A stretch of DNA of 54,688 bases from a virus (Duplodnaviria; Heunggongvirae; Uroviricota; Caudoviricetes): IMG/VR virus record IMGVR_UViG_2541047774_000008, positions 1 to 54,688 of that record, one strand, 5' to 3'. The translations under genes were made by a program, and so were the position numbers. Below the pieces are notes generated by a model. The model made no database searches. It worked only from the letters and a program-made list of their open reading frames with translations, and was not told where the DNA came from. The first letter of the stretch is position 1; each line of letters starts with the position of its first letter. This document shows positions 20,424-20,444 of the stretch, piece by piece.

Positions 20424-20444
20424 GCAATACACAGCGCAATACAC
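20424..20444. repeat. 21-bp subterminal direct repeat GCAATACACAGCGCAATACAC (putative integrase arm-type site), left end
   Basis: Tandem GCAATACAC pair; near-identical copy (one mismatch) at 35162-35182. Confidence 0.6.

Follow-up and report, generated by a model that had tools for sequence, protein, structure and literature searches.

Doubled motifs in both arms of a terL-embedded capsid-forming PICI are probable arm-type sites of the satellite's own integrase

In the window, by which we mean the whole 54,688-nucleotide stretch of viral DNA analysed here, two co-oriented copies of a doubled 21-bp motif lie just inside the ends of a phage satellite, and the comparisons presented below indicate that they are most likely arm-type sites bound by the tyrosine integrase (Int) of the satellite itself, acting through an Int-tetramer mechanism. 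Consistent with such a role, Int carries a separate N-terminal arm-DNA-binding domain, and the repeats are unrelated to the crossover core, occur in both arms and keep a fixed distance from the crossover. An earlier note on this DNA had put forward the same reading, which appears to be the best supported one in view of the Int N-domain, the conservation within the arms, the fixed distance to the core, the parallel layout of phage P4 and the co-variation between N-domain and half-site. In satellites that reside within their helper prophage and keep one of its packaging genes hostage until excision, the motif is a marker of the recombination machinery.

A capsid-forming satellite splits a prophage terL gene

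The satellite resides within the terminase large-subunit gene (terL) of its helper, which it divides into two parts:

19612 to 20341, minus strand: C-terminal part of the helper terL, delimited by alignment with the intact terL
20342 to 20348, no strand assigned: core TTGGTAA, the presumed 7-bp overlap, at the junction of the terL C-terminal part and the island
20349 to 35312, minus strand: helper-embedded capsid-forming PICI (cf-PICI), ~15 kb, with nearly all identified genes on the minus strand
35313 to 35319, no strand assigned: core TTGGTAA at the junction of the island and the terL N-terminal part
35320 to 36340, minus strand: N-terminal part of the helper terL, ~340 codons, co-oriented with int

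Annotation with Pfam and PHROG profiles, together with that of the near-identical locus L002, identifies int, two alpA genes, a Bro-N gene, a RepA-type helicase, an SSB and a PerC-like activator, as well as a packaging set composed of capsid, protease, portal, adaptor, HNH, terS and terL genes, while no tail or lysis genes were seen in the satellite. By gene content the element is a cf-PICI (10-15 kb, int and alpA, its own capsid and packaging set, no tail or lysis genes); the further cf-PICI criterion, that att sites are never occupied by prophages, is inapplicable because the target is itself a prophage gene. It also shows the helper-embedded PICI (HE-PICI) arrangement, in which a prophage terL is split, int lies on the same strand and excision alone restores the interrupted gene.

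The boundaries of the island are sharply defined. In a megablast search of positions 20000-36000 against phage genomes, both flanks match one continuous terminase large-subunit gene, and alignment of the junctions with the uninterrupted terL of phage vB_EcoM-606R7 (ON470580) reveals a shared TTGGTAA at both ends. In silico excision at this core yields a gap-free terL of 585 codons, 99.8% identical to the intact phage gene, in which the core occupies codons 341-343, so that the insertion into this terL, which belongs to a lambdoid E. coli prophage, falls at codon 341. The core comes in two versions, TTGGTAA and TTCGTGA (seen across the window, L002 and several IMG/VR loci), and within any one genome both junctions have the same version, as expected if attP and attB must match in the 7-bp overlap. 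Site-specific integration, which the earlier note had favoured over rearrangement, is established as far as sequence can establish it: the core co-varies between the ends, and an origin of the island or of its motif by rearrangement or duplication is rejected because the junctions at the 7-bp core are precise and terL is restored. The island boundaries proposed in that note were also correct, its 76 and 131 bp being inclusive counts of the 75 and 130 bases that intervene between the motifs and the shared TTGGTAA.

Of 5426 complete E. coli genomes, 36 carry the int-terL junction, in each case within the terL of a prophage, and in several of these both junctions read TTCGTGA. The left-arm 160 bp that hold the motif accompany this int in 34-36 E. 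coli genomes. The neighbouring segment 20499-20700 has a different distribution, being common to the cf-PICIs of 369 E. coli genomes with other integrases, at 80-90% conservation. This left-end, non-coding segment, in which C7 and (TA)n runs are joined by three copies of GCGGGTTA(T), probably represents the cos/packaging region of the satellite.

One domain pair is common to the terL of the satellite and the helper terL that it interrupts, so that the satellite occupies a homologue of a gene it carries, and a 44-nt stretch of the satellite gene (22099-22142) aligns with the helper gene (35835-35878) at 73% identity. Outside the island, the window holds a tRNA cluster (Gly-TCC, Thr-TGT, Lys-TTT and Met-CAT at 40318-40627, minus strand) and a separate tRNA-Ser(CGA) at 53708-53797, likewise on the minus strand.

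The doubled motif is confined to the two arms

Within the window the doubled 21-mer, GCAATACACAG(C/T)GCAATACAC, is confined to two positions on the same strand, the first of which is followed by a candidate additional half-site:

20424 to 20444, plus strand: int-distal doubled motif GCAATACACAGCGCAATACAC, two GCAATACAC half-sites with a 12-bp period
20445 to 20456, minus strand: candidate third half-site CAATACAGATAC, inverted and imperfect, abutting the distal pair
35162 to 35182, plus strand: int-proximal doubled motif GCAATACACAGTGCAATACAC, reading GTGTATTGCACTGTGTATTGC on the int-sense strand

Each 21-mer consists of two exact 9-mers with a 12-bp period, and on the int-sense strand the proximal site reads GTGTATTGCACTGTGTATTGCA and the distal site GTGTATTGCGCTGTGTATTGC. 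The positions and tandem 9-mers described in the earlier note are thus borne out, except that the copies are not identical as it had stated, differing at one spacer base (C/T). Exact copies of the 9-mer number four in the window, all within the two 21-mers, and copies with one mismatch are at chance level (16 found versus 13.4 expected). Allowing up to 2 mismatches adds no further doubled site in the window, and none of 100 shuffles gives any.

The distal motif is separated from the left core copy by 75 intervening nucleotides and the proximal motif from the right copy by 130, and it follows that the 21-mer is not itself the core, in agreement with the earlier note's view of it as an arm site. 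The int ATG (35141, minus strand) follows the proximal motif at a distance of 20 nt. In the reconstructed attP, 212 nt separate the two 21-mers, which are 233 bp apart start to start and whose flanks are dissimilar.

Beyond the distal pair, positions 20445-20492 contain an inverted, imperfect copy GTATCTGTATTG and the partial copies GATACAC and GATACAG. Neither the third half-site nor the partial copies are present in the distal arms of other site groups, being limited to this group, and they could be extra arm sites or chance matches.

The window element is a further copy of a published HE-PICI

HE-PICIs have been described by Tommasini, Mageeney and Williams (2023, NAR Genom Bioinform; PMC10111431), who located them in late genes of prophages, at 14 sites of which A:Terminase_1:245 is one. 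In that work each reconstructed attP carries the doubled motif tgTGTATTGCantgTGTATTGCa twice in the same orientation, 81±2 bp upstream and 132±2 bp downstream of the attP centre; the motif is called unique to HE-PICIs, does not resemble an IHF site, and has three candidate readers given equal weight, namely the arm domain of the integrase, AlpA and some other protein (PMC10111431). Excision after helper induction was shown experimentally there only for 11capE, from another site group. Supplementary File 1 of the same study lists Eco4004.15.A_Terminase_1_246 at CP015229.1/1166714-1182122, with the att identity tcacgaa, and, for that site, another E. coli island, Eco3786.14, with the att identity ttaccaa (PMC10111431).

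The CP015229 island corresponds to our locus L002; the Int proteins of L002 and the window share 99% identity, and ttaccaa is the reverse complement of the window core TTGGTAA. The window has tgTGTATTGCantgTGTATTGCa in the int sense as two co-oriented copies per attP, spaced by 212 nt as compared to the published ~213, and its target is that of the A:Terminase_1:245/246 element group; its instance of the motif differs in nothing of substance. Because its Int is 99% identical to that of CP015229 and its core appears in the supplement, the window holds a further instance of an element already described; the motif, where it lies, the kind of element and the arm-site hypothesis have all been published before. 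The present analysis is a confirmation with modest extra evidence for the integrase as the reader, its additions being the tabulated fixed geometry, the P4 parallel, the fis-type half-site and the N-domain co-variation.

Motif placement follows the crossover rather than the int gene

Integrases and motifs were compared more widely across IMG/VR and GTDB genomes. The strict 21-mer is found in 37 IMG/VR stretches, 35 of which are ends of the same island type, while the remaining two are distal arms of other such islands, one by a tape-measure gene and one by a lambda-type portal gene fragment. In IMG/VR it is thus restricted to the arms of such islands, rather than being common in unrelated contexts, an outcome that the earlier note had named as fatal to its reading. 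The relaxed pattern GCAATACRC-N3-GCAATACRC is present in more than 119 IMG/VR stretches, mostly 15-53 nt upstream of an int start codon and in constant orientation, and the integrases behind it are 45-70% identical to the window Int. The relaxed pattern also turns up in unrelated, apparently coding tandem repeats (L064, L068, L073, L078, L109 and L138) on giant-virus and other metagenomic contigs, and it is only the strict 21-mer or the genomic context that is diagnostic.

Two Xenorhabdus genomes, compared at the int-proximal end within a 10-kb flank, encode integrases with 66% identity and carry GTGTATTGCAATGTGTATTGC at ~127 bp from the island boundary, with int ~20 nt downstream of it. No integrases of intermediate identity were found in the E. 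coli genomes, where matches are either at least 95% identical or short and weak. Overall, the targets of motif-bearing islands include terL, protease, portal and other genes in Escherichia and Xenorhabdus.

To describe the geometry we assembled 23 end pairs. Two of them are those of the window and of L002, and the other 21 are pairings made on IMG/VR contigs, among which one was entered twice on account of its three tandem half-sites. The corresponding integrases are 48-70% identical, and the pairs feature at least six cores (TTGGTAA/TTCGTGA, TGGATCATCAT, ATCGCCTT, TCGTGATATT, CTTTGTTATAAAATT and TGTTTGTT). Cores were located by a distance-constrained search; searching for the longest repeat without distance limits returned spurious A-rich words and was abandoned. 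The gap between proximal motif and core is 128-130 nt in 20 of the 23 pairs, and the sum of core length and distal gap is 82-83 in 19 of them, including both terL-site pairs, the exceptions being short or alternative core matches (L059, L070 and the second L114 pairing) and a value of 80 in L106. The gap between motif and int ATG, by comparison, varies from 15 to 53 nt over the same pairs. With the distance to the core fixed and that to the start codon variable, the motif is placed relative to the crossover and not to the gene. Furthermore, in a comparison of diverged arms (18 proximal and 21 distal), the doubled motif is the sole block conserved at 80% or more.

Half-sites also vary in number, L114 (1131-1163) having three tandem copies. 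In the portal-site group (L054, L045, L046, L052 and L118) an extra single GCAATACAC lies ~20 nt int-ward of the pair, and int begins 53 nt from the motif. Diverged site groups also display a weak pattern, g.AAc.....aAac, 8-20 nt core-ward of the proximal motif (35192-35204 in the window), where a second protein may bind, perhaps AlpA or one that bends DNA.

The same attP architecture is found with other half-sites

Satellite phage P4 (NC_001609) has annotated 'attP arm sequence repeats' in the same layout as the window: a first tandem pair (3942-3965) precedes the int ATG by 15 nt, the core occupies 4078-4097, and a second, co-oriented pair is at 4151-4174. Both P4 pairs share the 12-bp period, and the P4 integrase is also of the Arm-DNA-bind_3 type, although it is only 25% identical to the window Int, its half-site is (A/T)TGCCCCC rather than GTGTATTGCA, its pairs are 209 rather than 233 bp apart start to start, and its attP has a 20-bp core and extra single repeats. 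The P4 core lies in a tRNA-Leu gene.

A closer relative is the fis-type cf-PICI vB_KppS-Ant (LR881103), an induced element listed as 'Escherichia phage vB_KppS-Ant', which shares the cf-PICI gene set (82% identity in terL and 68% in the capsid) and in whose contiguous attP the starts of the two doubled sites, which are co-oriented, lie exactly 233 bp from each other. Its doubled site, however, is TGTATAAACA-NN-TGTATAAACA, its core is the 3' end of fis and not a prophage gene, and its Int N-domain is 54% identical to that of the window. In IMG/VR, 67 stretches contain the TGTATAAACA doubled site, and in two metagenome contigs whose attP is contiguous the spacing is again 233 bp. The contiguous attP sites lie at:

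L140 (LR881103), 4850 to 5106: attP with TGTATAAACA doubled sites
L188, 2934 to 3188: attP with TGTATAAACA doubled sites
L202, 2790 to 3044: attP with TGTATAAACA doubled sites

The description of the doubled motif as unique to HE-PICIs therefore apparently holds for the motif sequence and not for the architecture.

Phage lambda employs its five arm sites in different ways for integration and for excision, and has int on the opposite side of attP. The lambda P and P' arm sites, to which the N-terminal domain of Int binds, are the most likely functional model for the window element and resemble the window arrangement in that a heterobivalent integrase is combined with repeats flanking a 7-bp overlap at ~60-130 bp (PMC2951348), whereas the lambda N-domain family and site sequence are different and the window Int falls outside the lambda Int family.

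The integrase N-domain appears to track the half-site

The int gene and the two alpA genes directly downstream of it encode the candidate DNA-binding proteins of the recombination module:

33918 to 35141, minus strand: tyrosine integrase, 407 aa, P4/CP4 type (Pfam)
33719 to 33952, minus strand: AlpA-family protein 1, excisionase/transcription regulator (Phage_AlpA, E=1.9e-9; phrog_2790)
33377 to 33685, minus strand: AlpA-family protein 2 (Phage_AlpA, E=7e-10; phrog_2790, E=1.7e-34)

Int combines an N-terminal Arm-DNA-bind_3 domain (Pfam, residues 6-92, E=1e-17), which matches the solved N-domains of CP4-like integrases (PDB 3JU0 and 3JTZ/3RMP), with a catalytic Phage_integrase domain (Pfam, residues 211-377, E=1.4e-18). 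AlpA homologues are present in every island examined, and their presence or absence cannot discriminate between potential readers of the motif. We therefore compared the identity of each protein to its window counterpart, taking the Int N-domain as residues 1-95, between islands with the window motif and islands of the TGTATAAACA class (n=33-34):

Int N-domain: 56-77%, median 66 (n=48), in window-motif islands; 40-58%, median 54, in TGTATAAACA islands
Rest of Int: median 44 (n=48) in window-motif islands; 45 in TGTATAAACA islands
AlpA1: median 44 (n=45) in window-motif islands; 43 in TGTATAAACA islands
AlpA2: median 49 (n=45) in window-motif islands; 55 in TGTATAAACA islands

In the direction expected for arm-type sites, the N-domain alone separates the two motif classes by its median, essentially as one clade-level switch and with ranges that touch at 56-58%. 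Near-invariant, class-specific Int residues are R34/K and F43/W, which by analogy are taken to fall in beta-strands. The co-variation favours Int over AlpA as the reader and amounts to one evolutionary event.

A model for the integrase-attP complex and its alternatives

We propose that the excised circle would join the island ends into an attP of ~250 bp, which in the int sense would comprise the distal site, 75 nt, the TTACCAA overlap, 130 nt, the proximal site, 20 nt and int. The four 9-10 bp half-sites (GTGTATTGCA) would be bound by the N-terminal domains of four Int protomers, whose C-terminal domains would at the same time bind and cut the core, and such bridging would fold the arms onto the core in a complex capable of inserting the satellite at terL codon 341. 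With AlpA as a putative directionality factor, the same sites could serve the attL x attR reaction that would excise the satellite and restore terL. The sequences themselves show the sites, the core, their geometry and conservation, the Int N-domain and its co-variation with the half-site; the identity of the motif's binder, the 4:4 stoichiometry and any autoregulation are what we infer.

The AlpA proteins themselves are the most obvious competitors for the motif. Excisionases of the winged-helix type commonly bind repeats that are arranged head to tail at a spacing of roughly one helical turn, the two AlpA-family genes lie directly downstream of int and have homologues in all motif-bearing islands, and AlpA is named as an alternative reader in the published description (PMC10111431). 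As AlpA sites, the doubled motifs would bend both arms for excision and control int from the proximal site. We consider this rather unlikely: directionality-factor sites are typically located in one arm, between the core and the arm-type sites, whereas the same doubled site is found here on both arms and at the outer edges of attP. The TorI sites, for example, lie on attL (PMC2951348). In addition, AlpA similarity does not follow the half-site, the AlpA2 median being 55% in islands with the other half-site as opposed to 49% in those that share the motif, and P4, with its same architecture, has repeats annotated as attP arm repeats. A search of the literature for AlpA binding sites in PICIs returned nothing useful.

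A helper or host protein, such as a late-gene regulator, a Bro-N protein or a nucleoid protein, could alternatively read the motif and tie recombination to the helper cycle, in keeping with the published option of 'some unknown DNA binding protein' (PMC10111431), the unexplained tropism of the clade for prophage late genes and the presence of Bro-N proteins in the islands. We find this less probable still than a role for AlpA, as the motif is kept across very different helpers, genera and target genes, different integrase clades have different half-sites in an unchanged geometry, and the motif is unlike an IHF site (PMC10111431). That the 21-mers are a chance match or a functionless remnant of duplication or rearrangement is a reading with virtually no likelihood left, refuted both by the shuffles, none of which produced a single doubled site, and by the comparative data, in which the strict 21-mer recurs in such island arms alone (IMG/VR), the relaxed pattern sits mostly 15-53 nt upstream of related int genes and the flanks are dissimilar. 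The integrase thus remains our preferred reader of the doubled motif.

Possible consequences for int expression and excision timing

With the proximal pair 20 nt before int, bound Int may damp its own expression, by analogy with P4 and KplE1. The arm-type sites of the KplE1/HK620 integrase IntS overlap the intS promoter (Panis et al. 2010, PMC2951348, whose reference list includes Piazzolla et al.), and Int and the directionality factor together give negative autoregulation (PMC2951348). Arm-type sites beside the int start in the attachment region are common to KplE1 and the window; unlike in KplE1, autoregulation in the window would be a matter of analogy, as no sigma-70-like promoter is predicted near the proximal site (35050-35400) and autoregulation is without sequence support here. 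Since int is co-oriented with terL, it may well be reached by helper late transcription, as proposed for HE-PICIs (PMC10111431).

The truncated terL' frame (36340 to 35147) crosses attR and the proximal motif and ends in ...VYCTVYCKNGL*, its TAA stop (35149-35147, minus strand) lying 5 nt before the int ATG. In this site group the int ATG has no obvious Shine-Dalgarno sequence, while other groups have a GAGG-like sequence, and int translation may be coupled to the helper late gene.

A more speculative proposal, to which we assign about the same low likelihood as to AlpA binding, is that the doubled sites are more than plain arm sites and act as a timing device, read by AlpA, a helper protein or a dual-role Int, and together with the terL' stop couple excision to the helper late genes; in a weaker form, half-site and N-domain would constitute a swappable specificity module held at a rigid 233-bp geometry in the HE-PICI and fis-type clades. 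Identifying the motif reader would explain how a rigid attP scaffold is combined with repeated switching to new target genes, and would provide a compact, re-targetable integrase/att module.

Finally, the C-terminal end of the phrog_9 profile (terminase large subunit) matches the Int C-terminus (33918-34320) with E=2.6e-25, which suggests that terL-int fusion mis-annotations arising from such insertions are built into the profile. A comment in the HE-PICI supplement likewise concerns such fusions and reads 'reannotate terminase/int fusion' (PMC10111431).
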